64,000 nt of DNA. Origin: a phage. The stretch lies in assembly GCA_025611195.1 (NCBI GenBank), contig GCA_025611195.1_4718.2. The stretch is one strand, 5' to 3'. Positions 1-60,033 of this stretch are shown here, in pieces. The stretch's first letter is position 1. Each line of letters begins with the position of its first letter. Both the position numbers and the translations under genes were made by a program. Below the pieces are notes generated by a model. It made no database searches and had not been told where the DNA came from. It saw only the letters and a program-made list of their open reading frames with translations.

Positions 1-196
1 TTCCATACACGCTCGCCACGTAAATTCGAAGTTCTTTTAAACGATCAAGTAACAACTGTGCGATTTCCAGAGCTTCTTCTGTGGCGGTCTGTGTGTTGCA
101 ACCACGTAACTTGTGCTCTAACAGCGAAGTCGCGGCATCGAGCATGGATGTGTATTTACGATAGTTATAAATATCAATTATAGCTGTCTGATTCAT
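1..196 (-). CDS. hypothetical protein, partial (C-terminus beyond window edge)
   Basis: ATG at 196-194 (minus); frame open to position 1 with no stop; no clear RBS seen. Confidence 0.3.
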   Translation of the reverse strand, partial: MNQTAIIDIYNYRKYTSMLDAATSLLEHKLRGCNTQTATEEALEIAQLLLDRLKELRIYVASVYG

Positions 197-207
197 ATAC
201 ACGTTGT

Positions 208-900
208 TTATTTGTTAGGGTCAGGTAATACTAGGTATTGCCGGTAAAGAGAGTCGATCGCTTTCCTAATATGGCTTGCTTGAAGACGACGCCCGAGAAA
301 AGTCTTATAAAAGGGGTTACGGTCCATGTACAGATCATAATTCCATCTCATCACGACTATGACGTTTTTTATAAACAAACGACATTGCATAATGACTGGA
401 TCGTTATCTTGAGTGTACTTACTCGCGCTACCGATACCACACCTCTTATTAACTTCCCTTAACCGTATTATCACTTTCACGAATTTAATCAGTTCAACCA
501 ATTGGCGTAAATTACGTCGAAACCAATATTGTCGCCAACCTCTCAATGTTTTATGAAAAGGGCCGAAGAGAGTTCTATACCCACACGCATAAAAACTTAA
601 TGTAGATTTCGTATAGCTTGTATATACCCTCAGGCTCTTTTTGGCGCTCTCTTTGTCGTAGTAAACAACACGACCAGGTTTATAATTACGGTTATATAAC
701 TGATCAACACATTCGCCGATTAGACCCACGGTCGACAAACAATCGGTCATGGCTTTAACGGTTTCCGTGTCGTTATACAGTTCTCCTAGCCAGCGAAGCT
801 GTTCTGCTTTTTCCCGTAAACGACGAATACGTTGCTGCCACCAAAACCATCGAATATCCCGAATAGGTTTCTCTGTCCCTGTATTAGAGTTTGTCGTCAT
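208..900 (-). CDS. hypothetical protein (230 aa)
   Basis: ORF track; part of compact minus-strand gene tiling; basic, W/R-rich. Confidence 0.5.
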   Translation of the reverse strand: MTTNSNTGTEKPIRDIRWFWWQQRIRRLREKAEQLRWLGELYNDTETVKAMTDCLSTVGLIGECVDQLYNRNYKPGRVVYYDKESAKKSLRVYTSYTKSTLSFYACGYRTLFGPFHKTLRGWRQYWFRRNLRQLVELIKFVKVIIRLREVNKRCGIGSASKYTQDNDPVIMQCRLFIKNVIVVMRWNYDLYMDRNPFYKTFLGRRLQASHIRKAIDSLYRQYLVLPDPNK

Positions 901-5729: not shown

Positions 5730-5751
5730 GTTAACCTCAATACGAACATAA

Positions 5752-5783
5752 CCCTCCTCCGACCCATCAGGGAAGGAGGAGGG
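5752..5783 (-). terminator. CCCTCCTCC / GGAGGAGGG hairpin between minus genes
   Basis: 9-bp inverted repeat 5752-5760 / 5775-5783 just downstream of the stop at 5793. Confidence 0.5.
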
Positions 5784-5792
5784 AATATGCTG

Positions 5793-6107
5793 TTATTTTG
5801 TTTTAGGTGTTGAACCGTTCTTCTTGAAGTCGGATTCGTATTTCACGTTAGAATCGAGAACCTCACGAACGGTTTTATCCGTACAGCCACGAGCGATGTA
5901 TGCATTAAGATCATCACGTAATTTACGCATTGTTGTTTTATCCGCATCAGAAATATCTGACTTGGTAAGACGGAATGCAATTGCGTCACGGATTTTATTC
6001 AGCGTCGCTGGGTTAATACGCTGTTCTGCAAATACCGCTTTGATGAACTTATCGCTATCTTTCGAAGCGACGGCAGCATCAAGAATCTCAATATGCTTTT
6101 CAGACAT
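5793..6107 (-). CDS. hypothetical protein (104 aa)
   Basis: ORF track; basic/acidic mixed small protein. Confidence 0.45.
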   Translation of the reverse strand: MSEKHIEILDAAVASKDSDKFIKAVFAEQRINPATLNKIRDAIAFRLTKSDISDADKTTMRKLRDDLNAYIARGCTDKTVREVLDSNVKYESDFKKNGSTPKTK

Positions 6108-10721: not shown

Positions 10722-11243
10722 TTAAAGTGCGTTCATTTCTTCAGGTGTGCGTACAGTGCGCGTGTTGGGATCGACCATTGCTGGTACGCCCGCAGGACAT
10801 TTACGGACATCAATCCGCATCTCAGGCTCGATCGGACGAACGCGATACGTTTTACCGTCGTCGGTTAACACCGAAATGGTCAACGCTTGGTTCAATTCAT
10901 TAACGAAGTTCACCAAACGCTGCTGCCCGCCTGCCGACCAGAAGTTGAGATCGGTTTCTCCGCTGAAATAACTGATTCCTTCGGCGGTCCCAATCGTGAT
11001 TTTAACGATGCCCGGATAGTCACGAAGAAGGGGTGCCTGATAACCTTCATCTTCCGTATCCAATTTTACCCACGCGCCTCCCGTAGACAAGCAGTTAACT
11101 TCCAAGGCGGTTGGCGCACTGACTTCTGCCGATGACCAGGTATACATCGTGCCTAGTTTAGCGTGTCCGGTTTCCAGCTCGCTGTAATCCCAAGCGTGTG
11201 CTGATGCCGTAATAAAGAGGGCTGCAAGAAACAACTTTTTCAT
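10722..11243 (-). CDS. putative secreted/periplasmic protein with Sec-type signal peptide
   Basis: N-terminus MKKLFLAALFITASAHA-WDY (n-h-c regions, AHA cleavage site); ATG at 11243 with AGGAAT RBS. Confidence 0.55.
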   Translation of the reverse strand: MKKLFLAALFITASAHAWDYSELETGHAKLGTMYTWSSAEVSAPTALEVNCLSTGGAWVKLDTEDEGYQAPLLRDYPGIVKITIGTAEGISYFSGETDLNFWSAGGQQRLVNFVNELNQALTISVLTDDGKTYRVRPIEPEMRIDVRKCPAGVPAMVDPNTRTVRTPEEMNAL

Positions 11244-11298
11244 TCTTTTCGATTCCTATTAAAAGTGACCGATTTCTGTGGTCAGGATTGCTAATACA

Positions 11299-12095: not shown

Positions 12096-12121
12096 AGCAG
12101 GTACCGGTAACGCGGCATAAA

Positions 12122-12139
12122 CCCTCCCCGAAGGGAGGG
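12122..12139 (-). terminator. CCCTCCC-CGAA-GGGAGGG hairpin
   Basis: 7-bp perfect stem, 4-nt loop, immediately downstream of the stop at 12150. Confidence 0.5.
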
Positions 12140-12149
12140 CGGTTAATGA

Positions 12150-12707
12150 TTACTCCATCCATACTTCTTCGTCGTAATGATTTTCTATCGCATTACGCCA
12201 AAAACGTACGGTGTCCAAACTAATCGGTGCGTAAAAATGTTGGTCAACGCCTACATTAAGTCCGTTGGCCTTCGCTAACATACAGCGATGAATATGCCCG
12301 AATAGATTGAAGTAGCCCGGGTTTCTTTCGCTGGGTTTATGGCATAGCCAGTAGGATTCGTCATTGCTAATCGGCAATACCAACGGATGTTCATAAACAG
12401 CAGCAAACCCCATACCGAGCAGTTTATCACGCCACGCGTCGAAGCTTAATCCTGTCGCTTTGTATGCGTCTTCGTCCCAATTCCCCATTACCAATTGAAC
12501 CTGGATATCAGAACGAATGGCTTCCACGAACTCGAACTTACCCCAATCACCTAAATGCCACAACACACTGTTCTTTGGAAGATTGTTGATGGCTTTCAGC
12601 ATATGTTGGTTCATATCGGCGACGCTTGCGAACGGACGGCGTGAATACGTCCATGTACGCTCGCTATCGAAATGGGTATCCGATGTAAAGAAGATGGGTG
12701 GGGTCAT
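12150..12707 (-). CDS. calcineurin-like metallophosphoesterase
   Basis: SDTHF, GDWG, GNWD and GHIH motifs in order. Confidence 0.65.
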   Translation of the reverse strand: MTPPIFFTSDTHFDSERTWTYSRRPFASVADMNQHMLKAINNLPKNSVLWHLGDWGKFEFVEAIRSDIQVQLVMGNWDEDAYKATGLSFDAWRDKLLGMGFAAVYEHPLVLPISNDESYWLCHKPSERNPGYFNLFGHIHRCMLAKANGLNVGVDQHFYAPISLDTVRFWRNAIENHYDEEVWME

Positions 12708-13186
12708 TGATCTAATTGCTCCAGAAATGCGCGACCCGATTTACTTGCTTTTAAATGCTGTTCTGCGGAAGTAAGCAGAAGATCGGTTGGTGTGAATGCA
12801 GCGCTACCTTTCCACGCCGTTTTCAGTTTACCCTTTTCGATACTGAACTGAATCAGTTGTTGGGTACCGAAGTTAAGCGTGTTCGTCGCGGCGCTAAATA
12901 CACCACCCATCATGCTGTAACCAAAGACTTTCACATTTTCCGTGTAGAAGTCATTGTCGATCAATTTGTTCTGGAGCTCGAGTTGATCGGACGGCAGCAA
13001 TCCCCCATCAAAGACACTTAAAATACCAGCCAGGCGATACATACTCACCTTCCCTGCAACGCCCACCACGTAATTGCCATACACGGTTTCTTCCAGTTTA
13101 GCAACAACGGTGCGATCGTCGGAGGTTTTCATCGAAACCTCAATACCATCACCAACTTCTGTCAACGTTAAATCAACGATACTCAT
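12704..13186 (-). CDS. hypothetical protein (160 aa)
   Basis: ORF track; ATGA overlap with 12150..12707. Confidence 0.45.
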   Translation of the reverse strand: MSIVDLTLTEVGDGIEVSMKTSDDRTVVAKLEETVYGNYVVGVAGKVSMYRLAGILSVFDGGLLPSDQLELQNKLIDNDFYTENVKVFGYSMMGGVFSAATNTLNFGTQQLIQFSIEKGKLKTAWKGSAAFTPTDLLLTSAEQHLKASKSGRAFLEQLDQ

Positions 13187-13895: not shown

Positions 13896-13943
13896 CGCAC
13901 GTACCTCTTTGAATCGGTAGATAGATTAATAGATATTGATTAC

Positions 13944-13968
13944 TCACGTAAGTAATATAGCCGTGAAA
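13944..13968 (-). promoter_or_regulatory. candidate phage early promoter (minus-strand TTTCACGGCTATATTACTTACGTGA)
   Basis: One of four near-identical 25-nt motifs with invariant TATATTAC, 50-70 nt upstream of the minus-strand ATG at 13895. Confidence 0.5.
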
Positions 13969-14048
13969 GGATTTGTGTTGGTCCGTTTCGATGCCCATCG
14001 TATTTTATGGATTGTCGAATGACGTCATTTTTAAGGGACATCCCCGAC

Positions 14049-16193: not shown

Positions 16194-16198
16194 TTAAG

Positions 16199-16227
16199 AA
16201 GCTCTGCCTGATGTCAGGCAGAGCTTT
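16199..16227 (+). terminator. rho-independent terminator after helicase gene
   Basis: AAGCTCTGCCTGA-TG-TCAGGCAGAGCTTT: about 12-bp stem followed by T-run, 6 nt after the stop. Confidence 0.6.
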
Positions 16228-16292
16228 ATGCTGCGTTCGCTGCAAAATCGTATGACGTATATGCGTTGTACTTATTAAATAGGACTGAATAC

Positions 16293-19041: not shown

Positions 19042-19056
19042 ACATGCTCCGGTTAT

Positions 19057-19078
19057 AAGGGCCTGCTTCGAGGCCCTT
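19057..19078. terminator. hairpin AAGGGCC / GGCCCTT with T-run on plus side
   Basis: 7-bp inverted repeat, 8-nt loop, followed by TTGATTTTTTGATT. Confidence 0.4.
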
Positions 19079-19110
19079 CATTGATTTTTTGATTCCACCA
19101 AACGCTATCG

Positions 19111-31976: not shown

Positions 31977-32001
31977 TCATAGAGGTAATATAAGCGTGAA
32001 T
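31977..32001 (-). promoter_or_regulatory. candidate phage early promoter (minus-strand ATTCACGCTTATATTACCTCTATGA)
   Basis: Fourth instance of the TATATTAC-core motif, upstream of the minus gene starting at 31889. Confidence 0.45.
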
Positions 32002-36703: not shown

Positions 36704-37168
36704 TTAAACCAATGCCGCGATAACGTCGTTAACATTACGACCGCGCAACTCTGCCGCCAAACGAATAACTTCATCCAGGGAACGGTTTGTACGAATCTTA
36801 GCTACTTTCCAATTTTCAGGATACTGTTCGAAGTTAAGTAACCAAGTCATTACCTTTGCTTGTTCCACACCGTTGAGTTTGATTGTCGTGCGCGGATTGG
36901 CTTTGAACCACTTCTTGCTCAGCTGTGCCATACGGCGAACAGGGTAAGCGTAAGCGCGAGTCCAATCTTTGGACAGATTGTCGAGTAACTCACGGTAGCT
37001 GCTATCGTAGTCTTTGTTGATACGACGTAATAACCAGTTGGCGGTCATCTGATAGAGTTTATCATCTTCACGTAACCGCATCCCTGCTACTGCTAAATAA
37101 ACGATAAGACCTGCACCCATGATGAGAGACAGGATAAACAGAACTTGGGTTTCTTGTGCTAAAGTCAT
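36704..37168 (-). CDS. putative membrane protein with one N-terminal transmembrane helix
   Basis: N-terminal VLFILSLIMGAGLIVYLAVAG hydrophobic segment; TATATTAC promoter motif upstream. Confidence 0.5.
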   Translation of the reverse strand: MTLAQETQVLFILSLIMGAGLIVYLAVAGMRLREDDKLYQMTANWLLRRINKDYDSSYRELLDNLSKDWTRAYAYPVRRMAQLSKKWFKANPRTTIKLNGVEQAKVMTWLLNFEQYPENWKVAKIRTNRSLDEVIRLAAELRGRNVNDVIAALV

Positions 37169-37254
37169 TTTTACTATCCTCGGATTTCGTTAGGATTTGA
37201 TTTCCAATATAAGGACAATGTGATATGCCTTATACAGTCGATTGATGTTGTACA

Positions 37255-37279
37255 TCACTTAAGTAATATAGCCGTGAAA
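37255..37279 (-). promoter_or_regulatory. candidate phage early promoter (minus-strand TTTCACGGCTATATTACTTAAGTGA)
   Basis: Near-identical to the motif at 13944..13968; 90-110 nt upstream of the minus ATG at 37168. Confidence 0.5.
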
Positions 37280-37288
37280 AATGTTGGA

Positions 37289-38104: not shown

Positions 38105-38126
38105 TTTAAGATTGCGTGCGGCATAG

Positions 38127-38153
38127 ACCCTCCCCGCCTTATGCAGGGAGGGT
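38127..38153 (-). terminator. ACCCTCCC / GGGAGGGT hairpin
   Basis: 8-bp stem, 11-nt loop, downstream of the stop at 38168. Confidence 0.55.
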
Positions 38154-38167
38154 AGCCATTAAATGGA

Positions 38168-39064: not shown

Positions 39065-39740
39065 TCGCTACCTCATACCCGCAGCTTTACCTGCAGCTTC
39101 CGGTGTTACCGGAATGTCCAGAATACATCTTATCCATATTCCAAATGGAACGTAGGACTTCCGCGCTGGATCTCGCTTGAGACCACGTATTCGTTGAACG
39201 TTCTCCTGAACGGAGCTTCGCTGCTGATCGAACATTGTCGTGTACGGTAGGCATCCCCGAAGGGATTGTCATTGAAGCCGCGTACATCCGCTACCTTGTT
39301 TCTACCTTATCGGTTCCTCTTACGAGGCGTAGCGGCCTTAGCCCTTCCCAGCAATTCACGGAATCCAAGCTCTTCCTTTCGGAAGGCAGGGCCTATGATT
39401 AAGCATCCCCGTCGCTGTTATCGACTATATCTTCATCCTCGTTGCGAGGAGTCTCCCGTTTGGGTCTGTGTTTAACAGAGCCTACTCTACTCAACATCGC
39501 GTCTTTCGATAGTCTGTGAGCACACATCTTAACGAACATTCGTGGATTCCTAAACAGGTGAACGTTCTTGTTGAGATGCTTCGCTGCGGATTATTCCCGT
39601 CCTACCTCTTTTACCGTACCCAGTTCATTACGCTGGCCCTCATCTATGTCACCATGATGAGTTGGTGTGTAGTCCGATTACAGAAACTTCCCGTCAATTA
39701 GAGAGTTTTAACTACGTTCCTGTTACCAGAAACCAGATCC
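39065..39740 (-). ncRNA. group I intron-like element B (approximate boundaries)
   Basis: Minus strand carries Q-like AATCCGCAGCGAAG (39592-39579), R-like GCTCACAGACTATCG (39521-39507) and S-like GAAGATATAGTCG (39433-39423); no long ORF. Confidence 0.5.
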
Positions 39741-39814
39741 CGACGGTATCAATAAATCAACGTAAGTTATTGATTTAATTGAAAAACTGAAATCTGCATT
39801 ATCTAAATCTTCAG

Positions 39815-40185
39815 TATGGTTCGCTACTCCATACCCGTACCTCATGTACTGCTTACGTCTTTCACGTAAGGATAGACTATATCTTTCACCCTCAGCATTA
39901 TCTGGTCGGGGCTCCCATTTCGGCGGTCAGATGACCGGTGGTTTCCCACGCCGCTTGGCCCTAACGCCCGTAAGCGATAGTCGTTGAGCACATCTCCGTT
40001 CTGGAGACTTCGCTGCGGATTCCCCAATCCTTGCCGCTTTTACCGTACCTGAATGATTAGTTCAGCCCCACGCTCTGTTCCCAGGCATGGTTGGTGGACG
40101 AGGCTCTAAGTAGGTTCCCGCATTAGAGAGTTCCTCGTAACAACATTTCTGCGTTACTGGGCCTAACGACCCTTTCAAGATCATC
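39815..40185 (-). ncRNA. group I intron-like element A (approximate boundaries)
   Basis: Minus strand carries P/Q-like GGTAAAAGCGGCAAGG...AATCCGCAGCGAAG (40044-40008), R-like GCTCAACGACTATCG (39987-39975), S-like AAAGATATAGTC (39885-39875) and a P9-like hairpin CTTACG-TGAAAGA-CGTAAG. Confidence 0.55.
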
Positions 40186-41411
40186 ACGCTTAACCCGATG
40201 GTGTTATCCTGCGGATCGCGTTTAACCTTGGTGATTTCAAGACATTGGTTACTGCTTCGGTCAAGTGATGGGTTTCGAACAAAGCCGCACACAATCCCAT
40301 CGAACGGTGTATCAGCAATAAGCTCATCATGCAGCTCGCTCATCATCGGATGATAATTACGGACATGTTCCGCAACGAACGCACGTGCTGCTCTCGGTGA
40401 ATAACCGCGATGGAATAACTTGGATTGGATATGTTCTTTATTGGTTAAAGTAAATGGTGCGTATGGGAAATGCAGATGATAATAACGATGGTTCGCTGTT
40501 ATCGAACTGATTACGGTACGCGTGGTGAATGGATGTAATGTACCTAATATGTTTTTACGCGTGATACCTTTCTTCTTACCGATGAACTCATCGAAAATCG
40601 CCGCGTGGTATTGCAGCAGCTTCAATTGCACTTTCGCCATCCAGTTTTCTTTCTTTCTGGCGCTCAAAGGTGTTGTTGGATGATAGATACTATTCAGTGT
40701 ACCAATAGCATCGATCGCACCTTCCATTTTGCTATCTGCATAACGGCCGGTCGGTGTATTTTCGATAACGAACATCATGGCCGCAGGAAAGCTGATATAC
40801 TGACTGAAGAACTTATCACGATGGATACGGATGAATTCTCGTAGCGTGTCAACTTTCTCTGTGTTCTTCGGTCCACGTAATGTGGGTCCTTTATACAAGA
40901 TCTCCATGATGCGATCGAAGTTCTGTATAAAGCTATTTACACCACGCCGTATCCCGAATACATCAAATTGCTGCTCCAGATAGTTCTTGAGTTCAATGGG
41001 TCGTTTTACATTTGGACGGTAACTGGCATCAATGAGCCACGTCATCGTTTCGAAGCTTTTGATATTCAACTCGCTTGCCAGCACGAGATGGACCAACGGG
41101 TTAATGAACGCATCGATTCCTTCAGGGACACGCGCCCAGACCGTCGAACGAATCTCCTGTTCTGCTGGGTAGGTTACAACCGTTTTACAGTTTGGACACA
41201 CCGTGCCGAGCAACTCACCGCGATTGTAGAAACCACAACCACATTGTGGCGTGATATCCAACGTATCGCTGGAGTAAACACGGGTGATAAAACTGTTTAA
41301 TTTCTTCTTCTCTTCGACGACTTTTGTATCGTAATCGTTCAACAAAATCGGCGTAAAGGGAAGTTCTGCGAGCTGTCTATCGAAACTCACGATATCGAGC
41401 ATGATGGCCAT
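40062..41411 (-). CDS. RNA polymerase beta-prime subunit, N-terminal portion; 3' end of this ORF probably reads into intron A
   Basis: Zn-binding CGCGFYNRGELLGTVCPNC; GKKKGITRKNILGTLHPFTTRTVIS aligns with beta-prime [24 protein letters not shown]; ORF ends before any DFDGD catalytic loop. Confidence 0.6.
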   Translation of the reverse strand: MAIMLDIVSFDRQLAELPFTPILLNDYDTKVVEEKKKLNSFITRVYSSDTLDITPQCGCGFYNRGELLGTVCPNCKTVVTYPAEQEIRSTVWARVPEGIDAFINPLVHLVLASELNIKSFETMTWLIDASYRPNVKRPIELKNYLEQQFDVFGIRRGVNSFIQNFDRIMEILYKGPTLRGPKNTEKVDTLREFIRIHRDKFFSQYISFPAAMMFVIENTPTGRYADSKMEGAIDAIGTLNSIYHPTTPLSARKKENWMAKVQLKLLQYHAAIFDEFIGKKKGITRKNILGTLHPFTTRTVISSITANHRYYHLHFPYAPFTLTNKEHIQSKLFHRGYSPRAARAFVAEHVRNYHPMMSELHDELIADTPFDGIVCGFVRNPSLDRSSNQCLEITKVKRDPQDNTIGLSVMILKGSLGPVTQKCCYEELSNAGTYLEPRPPTMPGNRAWG

Positions 41412-41453
41412 GGGACATCTCCTACAAATGAAAAAGAACGTTAGGACGTATAA

Positions 41454-41477
41454 GGGAGGGAGGTTGCCCTCCCTCCC
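41454..41477 (-). terminator. GGGAGGGAGG-TTGC-CCTCCCTCCC hairpin
   Basis: 10-bp perfect GC-rich stem with 4-nt loop downstream of the stop at 41504. Confidence 0.6.
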
Positions 41478-41503
41478 GTCAGATTACATCGAACGTTCTT
41501 CCA

Positions 41504-43399
41504 TTAGAACAGGTTGAATGCTCCACCCATGTTGTTACCACCAACATTCGGACGATCGCTACGTGCATAGATGTTGCCGGAGATGTTACCCAGACCACGA
41601 GCACGTGCTGCTGTGTTACCACGAACGGCGGTACCTGCCAGATGCTGGATGTTCTCAGGACGGATGGTGAAGCCAGCTTCGGCAGCCGCTTCAATCAATG
41701 CCGCAAGCGCATTCGGTTCGAAATCGTAACGCATTGCCCAACCGGTTTGTTCCCAGCTACCAGACAGAACGCGATCGATGATTTCGTGACGAGCAACAAC
41801 ACGCTGAGACATCGACATATCGGTACGGTCGAAGCTGTCTTCCCAAGCTTCTACGGTATCCGGGTTAGTGATGTTCATCATGTACAGATCGTCCATATCA
41901 CGAATATCGTGACGGTTACCGTCCTGGTGGTTGTAGTGACCCAGCGGGATACGGTTACCAGTAGCGTAGACTAACGGTTGGCCGTATTGATATTTCTTGC
42001 TGAAGCAACCCAGGGTGGTATCATCGAATGCACGATAGAGTGCTTTATAGCCTTCGGAGATTTCTTGAACTTTACCGTCAACGTTGCCCGTAAAGATCTT
42101 CTCAGCTGCAGGGATCATACGCAGCAACCAGCTATATTCGCCTTCTTCCGGTACGTCGATAGAAATCAGCAGAGACGGATACAGTACCTGTTGCAGGAAC
42201 TTGTAAATCTGCTCGTTGGTTTGAGTAGACAGATCCAGCGGTGCAGTAACTTCCGGATCCAGTACCATCGCCAGAGCACCCGGGTTATGCGGACCAATAC
42301 CACGAGCAGCGTTGCTGATTAAAGACTGCGCCCACGCCATACCGCTGTTCAGCGTAGCGATGGTACCAATCAGACCCAGCACAAACGTGTTCGGAGTGAA
42401 CGCATCCAGCTCCAGCGGGTAGGCGCTGGTCATCACGTAACGCGGTTGGTACTGTACAGTCGGCGGTACCGGATAACCGTTAACCAGAACAGGACCTTGG
42501 TTGAAGGTCGGGTTCTGCGGGCTGTAGGTCAGGTCAATGTAACCAGTGGTTGCGACCAGGCGCTGTTGACTATCGTAATCGCTCATCGCTTGACGGATAC
42601 GGTTAGAGATAGTTACAGTGATGTCAGAACGCACTGGGTTACCGACGATATCGCTGTCCTGCATACCGCTGGTGTTGTACTGAACGCTGCTGATCGGCTG
42701 ATCGCTTGCCATCATGCCCAGGTTGAACTGCGGCAGACCCAGTTTATCGCCGAGACGGATTTCGATCGCGGTTTGGATTGCGTTATCTGCAGCAGACAGC
42801 AGGGTGGTTGCCAGATGCGCAGATTCAGCAGTGATTTCATTGGTCACCACAGCCAGACCGGCGATACGAACAGTACCGTTAGCCTTACCGCCAATAGCCG
42901 CATACATTGCCGCCATGACTTCGTTGATGAACGTGCCGTTCAGGTTATCAACCCAGGTACGCGGTACCAGAATGTTACCATGCGGACCTTGTTCTTCACG
43001 ACGCGGCAGCGGAGCCAAACCGGCAACCAGCGGAAGCACATAACCGAAGAAGTGGTTATGGTCACCAACTTTTGCACCGCTCATAACAACCAGGGTCGGA
43101 TACGGTACACTGTACTGGTTAGGATCGACGGTCACCATGATGAAGTCGTCTTTGAACCCTTTATCTTCCAGTTCTTTCTCCATCAGACGACGGAGATTCA
43201 GTACCTGCTCGGAGCCAGTATTACGGCTAATACGACGGCTCAGTGTACGGTTGATCGTACGCATCGTATGAGTTACTTTAGGCTGGCCAGCAAAATCTGC
43301 AGCGGTTTCCAGCGCCTCATCAGCACGTTGTGCGGTGCGGGTTTCAGCTGCACGAATTTCTACATTATCGTTACCGTTATTACGTACGTCTAAGCCCAT
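41504..43399 (-). CDS. candidate chimallin (ChmA) phage-nucleus shell protein; alternative: major virion structural protein
   Basis: 631 aa with low-complexity N- and C-terminal tails; AAGAGGAA RBS; TATATTAC early-promoter motif upstream; strong terminator downstream; PhuZ encoded 8 kb away. Identity not verifiable by eye. Confidence 0.4.
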   Translation of the reverse strand: MGLDVRNNGNDNVEIRAAETRTAQRADEALETAADFAGQPKVTHTMRTINRTLSRRISRNTGSEQVLNLRRLMEKELEDKGFKDDFIMVTVDPNQYSVPYPTLVVMSGAKVGDHNHFFGYVLPLVAGLAPLPRREEQGPHGNILVPRTWVDNLNGTFINEVMAAMYAAIGGKANGTVRIAGLAVVTNEITAESAHLATTLLSAADNAIQTAIEIRLGDKLGLPQFNLGMMASDQPISSVQYNTSGMQDSDIVGNPVRSDITVTISNRIRQAMSDYDSQQRLVATTGYIDLTYSPQNPTFNQGPVLVNGYPVPPTVQYQPRYVMTSAYPLELDAFTPNTFVLGLIGTIATLNSGMAWAQSLISNAARGIGPHNPGALAMVLDPEVTAPLDLSTQTNEQIYKFLQQVLYPSLLISIDVPEEGEYSWLLRMIPAAEKIFTGNVDGKVQEISEGYKALYRAFDDTTLGCFSKKYQYGQPLVYATGNRIPLGHYNHQDGNRHDIRDMDDLYMMNITNPDTVEAWEDSFDRTDMSMSQRVVARHEIIDRVLSGSWEQTGWAMRYDFEPNALAALIEAAAEAGFTIRPENIQHLAGTAVRGNTAARARGLGNISGNIYARSDRPNVGGNNMGGAFNLF

Positions 43400-43463
43400 T
43401 TGGGATTCCTCTTTTCTTAAACTTTATTAAATGACGTCATTGAATCAGCTTCTACTCGCTCAT

Positions 43464-43488
43464 TCACCTAGGTAATATAACCCTGAAA
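43464..43488 (-). promoter_or_regulatory. candidate phage early promoter (minus-strand TTTCAGGGTTATATTACCTAGGTGA)
   Basis: TATATTAC-core motif 65-90 nt upstream of the minus ATG at 43399. Confidence 0.5.
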
Positions 43489-43653
43489 TTTTTTTCAATA
43501 TTGGTGTAACCACATTGAACGATATAAACCCCTAGGCGAACGCTGCCGAGAAGCAACATTCTTTCTACATATAATCAGGATATGTCTGTAAACTTTTACT
43601 TCTCTTATTGAGAGTAATGTCATATCCGTTTACCATCTTCTTACGGAGTTCGT

Positions 43654-59960: not shown

Positions 59961-59993
59961 CGTTATACGTCGTTAGTATTATAATACGTTATA

Positions 59994-60021
59994 GTCTCCC
60001 CGCCGGTATTAACGGGGAGTC
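59994..60021 (-). terminator. CTCCCCG / CGGGGAG hairpin after the terminase gene
   Basis: 7-bp core stem with flanking pairs, downstream of the stop at 60034. Confidence 0.45.
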
Positions 60022-60033
60022 TGCGGACTACTC

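Follow-up and report, generated by a model that had tools for sequence, protein, structure and literature searches.

A clade-restricted protein of Goslar-like nucleus-forming phages with a predicted cleavable Sec signal peptide and a probable periplasmic location

Genomic setting of gp154

The DNA analysed here is a stretch of 64,000 nucleotides (contig GCA_025611195.1_4718.2; "the window"), which is 92.6% identical at the nucleotide level to Escherichia phage vB_EcoM_Goslar over the 4 kb compared, and collinear with Goslar over ~48 kb (window 897–49199) at 94–97% identity. The beginning of the window is a locally divergent or replaced segment relative to Goslar: the first ~900 bp are only 75% identical (window 3–529 against Goslar 129157–129683; L010 358–884). 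The chimallin gene is found at 41504–43399 on the minus strand, and its product is 97% identical to the Goslar nuclear shell protein. As chimallin is encoded in the window, the label "nucleus-forming phage", given in a preliminary description of the locus made from the sequence alone, is correct, and the identity to Goslar bears this out as well.

The gene under study is a complete open reading frame at 10722..11243 on the minus strand, encoding 173 amino acids plus the stop codon. It is the ortholog of Goslar gp154 (HOV27_gp154, YP_009820839.1, "hypothetical protein"), with 97% amino acid identity. The preliminary description had the coordinates exactly right and left the strand unstated. The gene lies in a long run of minus-strand genes, comprising an HD phosphohydrolase (gp159), gp158, a metallophosphoesterase (gp157), gp156, gp155, gp154, and gp153, and, farther along, an exoribonuclease (gp147) and thymidylate synthase (gp141). 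The setting is thus a run of nucleotide-metabolism and hypothetical genes, not of lysis genes, and there are no paralogs of gp154 in the window or in the sister-clade locus L002 (see below). Between the HD phosphohydrolase and metallophosphoesterase genes, the gp158 ortholog (12704–13186, minus strand) has no known domain; gp158 is among the most abundant virion-associated proteins of Goslar, at an estimated 600–1450 copies (2026 Goslar structure preprint).

Elsewhere in the window, the ortholog of Goslar gp182 (36704–37168, minus strand; 154 amino acids) consists of a single N-terminal transmembrane (TM) helix at residues ~8–28, a basic stretch, and a large soluble domain, without a match in Pfam. 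No other clear candidate for a membrane-anchored protein was found in the window; this one could be a lysis protein of the holin or spanin type. Pfam-recognisable lysis genes are absent both from the neighbourhood of gp154 and from the surroundings of this gene.

Two tandem group I intron-like elements are located just upstream of the open reading frame of the RNA polymerase β′ subunit (40062–41411), at 39415–39781 and 39853–40189 on the minus strand (Rfam Intron_gpI, 46.9 bits, E 1.7e-10, and 29.6 bits, E 2.6e-5), with a partial third at 39159–39363 (minus strand, 16.7 bits). All three matches fall just below the gathering score, so a default Rfam scan reported nothing. At the β′ site, Goslar has one annotated intron and the HNH endonuclease gene gp186; the window lacks this HNH gene (about 1.07 kb) and has, at 39803–40170, a segment without a Goslar counterpart. 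Because the 5′ end of the 449-amino-acid β′ reading frame overlaps the second intron-like element, its exon boundaries have probably been mis-called.

We found no σ70 promoter signal for gp154, and the 55-nucleotide gap upstream of the gene contains neither of the two intergenic motifs seen in the window. One of these is a G+C-rich hairpin followed by (T)TATG or TATA, for example CCCTCCCTTCGGGGAGGG-TTTATGCCGCG, which is present in many intergenic gaps (~12096–12149, 16194–16265, 19042–19110, 38105–38167, 41412–41503, 59961–60033, and 5730–5823); TATGCYGC occurs 8 times in the window against 3.1 expected. These units look like a terminator combined with a phiKZ-type TATG promoter, and the one at ~12100–12130 probably heads a transcription unit gp156–gp155–gp154. 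The other motif, TATATTAC, is reminiscent of phiKZ-type early promoters and occurs at 13952–13959, 31985–31992, 37263–37270, and 43472–43479, all on the minus strand, with at least three of the four copies in intergenic gaps (13896–14006, 37169–37288, and 43400–43653); a count of four was reached in 13 of 100 shuffles, and is not significant alone.

Start codon and selection on the reading frame

The gene starts with ATG at 11243–11241 and ends with TAA. A Shine–Dalgarno-like AGGA (11254..11257, minus strand) is positioned 10 nucleotides upstream of the ATG and does not vary among four Goslar-like genomes. The reading frame cannot be extended, being closed off by in-frame TAA and TAG codons 5–6 codons upstream of the ATG. 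Before codon 47, just two further in-frame start codons are available: a TTG at codon 4, which precedes the hydrophobic core, and an ATG at codon 33, which lacks a Shine–Dalgarno sequence.

The four genomes aligned (the window, Goslar, an IMG/VR contig, and a metagenome contig) differ at 9–31% of the synonymous sites of gp154 and at 0.3–1.8% of the non-synonymous sites, giving a pN/pS of 0.02–0.06 in all six pairwise comparisons and hence strong purifying selection. Every difference in codons 1–32 is synonymous, which rules out a start at codon 33; likewise, residues 18–32 are conserved and under purifying selection, which counts against a downstream start. The possibility raised in the preliminary description, that the true start lies past the hydrophobic segment, thus does not hold, codon 33 also being devoid of a ribosome-binding site. 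The same codon selection pattern excludes the short overlapping plus-strand reading frames as the coding frame. The gene, its start, and the selection acting on it are clear from these data.

One lineage (P0002/L007), represented by an 8-kb Logan contig and a 247-kb contig deposited under Shigella flexneri at NCBI, has an extra A in the A-run after the gp154 ATG (L007 1491–1503, ATGAAAAAAGTTG in place of ATGAAAAAGTTG). This puts the ATG out of frame, so that the reading frame is called from the TTG at codon 4 and begins MFLAAFFITASAHA, followed by tryptophan; the two lysines are lost, and the h- and c-regions are intact. A homopolymer error would account for the extra A; the alternative is a natural variant in which the n-region is weaker.

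Architecture of the signal peptide

The translation of gp154 begins MKKLFLAALFITASAHAWDYSELE, as in the preliminary description, and its N-terminus can be divided into MKK, LFLAALFIT, and ASAHA, followed by WDYSELE. The first 17 codons (11193..11243, minus strand) encode a predicted cleavable Sec/signal peptidase I (SPase I) signal peptide, MKKLFLAALFITASAHA, which is followed by WDY, with the predicted cut between A17 and W18. The n-region, MKK, has a charge of +2 in the window, in Goslar, and in the contigs L004 and L006. The h-region consists of 9–10 uncharged residues, LFLAALFIT(A), against some 7–15 expected of a type I signal peptide, and its Kyte–Doolittle value of 2.7 over nine residues is the maximum of the whole protein. 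The c-region is polar and ends in A-H-A, placing alanine at both −3 and −1, and position +1 is a tryptophan, not a proline. After the predicted cut, the early mature region is acidic; acidic residues just past the cleavage site are favoured for Sec export. Against the Sec reading counts the length of the predicted signal peptide, which at 17 residues is at the short end for Gram-negative bacteria.

Of the 74 non-overlapping genes of the window, the gp154 ortholog alone satisfies a crude rule for n-, h-, and c-regions; among 200,000 N-termini generated at random with the amino acid composition of the window, 0.18% satisfy it. Other routes leave no trace in the protein. There is no lipobox ([LVI][ASTVI][GAS]C), and the first cysteine is residue 51; with no cysteine in residues 1–50, gp154 is not a lipoprotein processed by signal peptidase II (SPase II). 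Similarly, there is no twin-arginine motif (S/T-R-R-x-F-L-K), residues 1–73 being free of arginine, so gp154 is not a Tat substrate. An outer-membrane β-signal is also absent: the C-terminus (…RTPEEMNAL) is polar and ends in leucine, not in an aromatic residue. We considered an outer-membrane β-barrel of the Lom/Ail type and rejected it for want of this C-terminal signal, and because the low-confidence structural model contains helices as well as strands.

A sister clade with the same architecture

An exhaustive HMMER search of 1.84 billion representative proteins returned two orthologs at 43–44% identity (P0003 and P0005), which form a sister clade, and no relatives beyond these and Goslar-like sequences; a further search with the family profile and contigs from IMG/VR, JGI metagenomes, and GTDB genomes added only near-identical Goslar-like copies and the one sister clade. 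The two orthologs are encoded on chimallivirus-like contigs of 181 kb and 49 kb at a syntenic position, in the order SNF2 helicase, HD, x, metallophosphoesterase, …, gp155-like, gp154-like. The gp155–gp154 pair is thus kept, and the downstream gene differs: directly after the sister-clade ortholog (L002 10543–10779; L008 6543–6779) is a gene for a 78-residue protein with a C-terminal TM helix, IMSIIVIGGVVVMSAVAAI, and in Goslar and the window that position is taken by the unrelated, highly basic gp153. Other chimallin-encoding phages (phiKZ, PhiPA3, 201phi2-1, RAY, and others) have no gp154 ortholog. Judged by this distribution, gp154 is not part of the Chimalliviridae core genome and is a clade-restricted, accessory gene.

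The sister-clade N-termini read MKH(V/A)VKSVIAAALV(F/L)SSSAFA, followed by WE (in short form MKHVVKSVIAAALVFSSSAFA, then WE), with MKHxxK as n-region, SVIAAALVF as h-region, and A-F-A, then tryptophan, at the cleavage motif. Both satisfy the crude rule independently and with a different sequence, and P0003 has, at its N-terminus, a weak NCBIfam match (E 0.02) to the signal peptide of Asr, a periplasmic protein of E. coli. What has been kept across both clades is the charge of the n-region, the hydrophobic core, the small-x-small (A-x-A) site, and W at +1. The signal segment itself is nearly wholly different between the clades, and the mature domain has long identical blocks (VNCLSTGGAW, DYPxIVK, TDDGKxYRxR, and PAMVxP…TPEEM). 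Turnover of the sequence with retention of the architecture, next to identical blocks in the mature domain, is the signature of a functional, cleavable targeting peptide, and we believe this comparison to be the strongest argument for a signal peptide in gp154.

There are exactly two cysteines in the proteins of both clades, and both are invariant. C51 (codon 11091..11093, minus strand), within the motif VNCLSTGGAW, is a candidate partner in a periplasmic disulfide; C149 (codon 10797..10799, minus strand) is the second invariant cysteine of the family.

In essence, the classical Sec signal peptide proposed in the preliminary description, with its basic n-region, hydrophobic core, and AHA site, stands up on sequence criteria. 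It is supported by the start-codon analysis, by the selection on the N-terminal codons, and by the n/h/c architecture that is conserved in spite of the sequence turnover, as well as by the absence of a lipobox and a Tat motif, the two conserved cysteines, and the rarity of the pattern by chance.

The mature domain

The predicted mature domain (10725..11192, minus strand) has 156 residues, a mass of 17.2 kDa, and an acidic pI of 4.5, with homologs only in Goslar-like phages, the sister clade included. Neither the window protein nor its orthologs could be assigned to a significant family in Pfam, PHROG, NCBIfam, or PADLOC, and searching PDB sequences with the family profile gave only chance-level matches, to FlgK (E 0.025) and a designed ubiquitin. 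AlphaFold2 predictions reached a pLDDT of 38 from the single sequence, and a pLDDT of 42.5 with a pTM of 0.44 for the mature domain with a five-sequence alignment; both values are too low for the models to be interpreted, the second being, at low confidence, of mixed α/β type, and Foldseek found nothing for it at E ≤ 1e-3 in PDB or BFVD.

Two family leads were followed and rejected. A TraK_N/VirB9-like domain was suggested by sub-threshold Pfam matches to TraK_N (PF06586; 13.6–14.4 bits against a cut-off of 24.8), found in P0003 and P0005 only and not in the window protein, and by the top BFVD match, labelled "TraF/TraO/TraN". The hhalign probability was 0.7% against F TraK, with the signal peptides alone aligning, and 0.2% against an 11-sequence TraK alignment, and no TraK or VirB9 entry was among the PDB sequence or Foldseek matches. 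The other lead was a CE2_N/carbohydrate-binding jelly-roll, from a phmmer match (E 3e-5) to P0004, a 699-residue protein with four CE2_N repeats. This E-value is an artefact of summing four identical repeats, and against a single P0004 repeat the hhalign probability was 7%.

Detection of gp154 in Goslar preparations

In published LC-MS/MS data, five spectra of two peptides, covering 15% of the protein, are assigned to Goslar gp154 (Table S4, doi 10.64898/2026.04.21.720040), which is estimated in the virion table at 7–17 copies, similar to the gp160 helicase (doi 10.64898/2026.04.21.720040). Presence in a virion preparation counts against a periplasmic protein, which should not enter virions. 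However, many E. coli proteins are present in the same preparation, as are chimallin and PhuZ, with copy estimates above 100 (doi 10.64898/2026.04.21.720040), and for this reason we read the detection as evidence of expression, not of virion membership.

On the coverage given in that table, the 26 residues covered can be split into 14 + 12, which fits LDTEDEGYQAPLLR (14 residues) together with either WDYSELETGHAK or TYRVRPIEPEMR. If the 12-mer is the semi-tryptic WDYSELETGHAK, the processed N-terminus, it would place cleavage after A17, whereas TYRVRPIEPEMR would be silent on cleavage; the peptide LFLAALFITASAHAWDYSELETGHAK would argue for an uncleaved form.

Proposed mechanism and alternatives

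We propose that gp154 is made in the cytoplasm as a 173-residue precursor whose 17-residue type I signal would be recognised by the host Sec machinery. Once the protein has crossed the inner membrane, signal peptidase I would cut it behind the Ala-His-Ala motif (A17), and a soluble, acidic protein of 156 residues would be set free in the periplasm; a DsbA-dependent disulfide between its two invariant cysteines is probable there. Export, cleavage site, disulfide, and soluble periplasmic location, taken together, are very likely on the strength of the sequence features described above, and a soluble periplasmic protein would be the simplest reading of gp154. In the periplasm, gp154 may bind a component of the envelope or the apparatus with which incoming virions penetrate it, and thereby keep further phage from being taken up by the already infected cell or by its debris.

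For this last step, the most likely single option, though a tentative one, is a role like that of T4 Spackle or in receptor masking, which may protect the infected cell or the progeny. Among small periplasmic proteins of lytic coliphages, protection against superinfection is the most common function known, and we prefer a Spackle-like role for this reason and because gp154 is not linked to lysis genes. The preliminary description had suggested superinfection exclusion, lysis, or envelope remodelling; we found no homology, fold, or gene-neighbourhood support for any of the three, and no similarity of gp154 to Spackle or any other exclusion protein. As a whole, the precursor model, with an exclusion-type role as its best guess, is probably the best explanation of the data. 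It is rather unlikely, as far as we can judge, that gp154 founds a new fold family of periplasmic effectors of nucleus-forming phages, as, for example, the first exclusion or receptor-masking factor of a chimallivirus. More speculatively, the Sec signal could deliver gp154 into the lumen of the early-infection (EPI) vesicle, since this lumen would be topologically periplasmic if the vesicle is an invagination of the inner membrane.

The alternatives differ in where they place the protein and in what they make of its N-terminus. An uncleaved signal anchor would hold gp154 in the inner membrane with the 156-residue domain facing the periplasm, and the 26 residues of tabulated coverage are compatible with peptide combinations that are silent on the N-terminus. 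The uncharged stretch, however, is 13–15 residues long in both clades (h-region 9–15), shorter than a membrane-spanning helix and hence too short for an anchor, and it ends in the conserved small-x-small motif (AHA or AFA) followed by the invariant tryptophan, which is the signature of a SPase I substrate; we regard an anchor as quite unlikely. If gp154 instead stayed in the cytoplasm, its hydrophobic N-terminus would be a buried helix or strand, and the AlphaFold model is confident neither way. A buried element should, however, co-vary with the fold, whereas the N-terminal 17–21 residues have diverged far more than the mature domain and have kept only charge, hydrophobicity, and A-x-A, a pattern that is rare by chance, which makes this reading very improbable. 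Equally hard to credit is a low-copy virion or ejected protein whose N-terminus inserts into the host membrane, for example in forming the EPI vesicle. The estimated 7–17 copies in the virion LC-MS/MS table would fit, but they rest on 2 peptides and 5 spectra from a preparation that includes the non-virion proteins chimallin and PhuZ and many host proteins; moreover, neither the 28 modelled virion proteins nor those discussed as abundant include gp154, and export better explains the conserved A-x-A site and the cysteine pair.

A periplasmic factor in lysis or its timing, such as an antiholin, a lysis-inhibition sensor like T4 RI, or a helper of an endolysin or spanin, would share the predicted location of gp154. 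It would also suit the observation that phiKZ lyses more slowly at high multiplicity, from which a lysis-inhibition system in a chimallivirus has been suggested (PMC12894885). The locus argues otherwise: no holin, endolysin, or spanin candidate adjoins gp154, its neighbours being the HD, metallophosphoesterase, exoribonuclease, and hypothetical genes, and the sole N-terminal-TM protein found in the window is encoded 25 kb away at 36704–37168. Furthermore, in a holin of the phiKZ type, the large domain is cytoplasmic, which offers a periplasmic antiholin little to bind, and the gp154 family is absent from phiKZ and from all other chimalliviruses outside the Goslar group. A lysis factor is thus unlikely, and we retain the Sec-exported precursor with a possible exclusion-type role as the preferred reading.

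Relationship to known phage and host proteins

Spackle (Sp, gene 61.3), a small protein of the lytic coliphage T4, carries a cleavable Sec signal; it is soluble in the periplasm and acts on the envelope penetration of the superinfecting phage. Likewise, gp154 is a small coliphage precursor with a predicted cleavable Sec signal and a predicted soluble periplasmic product. It differs from Spackle in having no sequence similarity to it, with HMMER relatives that are only Goslar-like and no PHROG match, and in its 156 mature residues of predicted mixed α/β structure (at low confidence), compared with about 75 in Spackle. By analogy, gp154 may work like Spackle while standing outside the Spackle family.

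The T4 antiholin RI is also a phage protein with a periplasmic functional domain that modulates the infection cycle. RI, however, has a signal-arrest-release domain, binds the periplasmic domain of the holin T, and is tied to lysis inhibition, whereas gp154 has a short, classical signal that is predicted to be cleavable, no sequence similarity to RI, and no lysis genes in its neighbourhood; nor is gp154 a spanin. T5 Llp, Cor of phi80 and N15, and lambda Bor, which block receptors or alter the cell surface, are phage-encoded, Sec-dependent envelope proteins, as gp154 probably is. Unlike gp154, which has no lipobox or early cysteine, they are SPase II lipoproteins with a lipobox cysteine.

On the host side, the likeness to Ivy, PliC/MliC, and PliG, which are small, soluble, disulfide-containing periplasmic lysozyme inhibitors with a type I signal peptide, is conceptual only, and Pfam matched gp154 to none of these families at a threshold as loose as E ≤ 10. 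A lysozyme-inhibitor-like action on the tail lysozyme of the superinfecting phage is conceivable by analogy.

Significance for nucleus-forming phages

Work on chimalliviruses has centred on cytoplasmic compartments, namely the EPI vesicle, the chimallin nucleus, and the PhuZ spindle. Periplasmic or secreted phage proteins go unmentioned in a recent review of nucleus-forming phages, and the literature searched is silent on Goslar gp154, the one match being to the gp154 of RAY. By its predicted features, gp154 is a new clade-restricted family within a known category, that of phage-encoded, Sec-exported envelope proteins. Since it is clade-restricted and accessory, and the category is well known, it serves as an annotation aid and an experimental lead and does not come as a surprise. 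A role in superinfection exclusion would bear on the ideas of "viral speciation" in the field, with receptor masking and lysis control as other options. Conserved, expressed, and predicted to be exported, gp154 offers a handle, cheap to test, on how chimalliviruses may manipulate the cell envelope.
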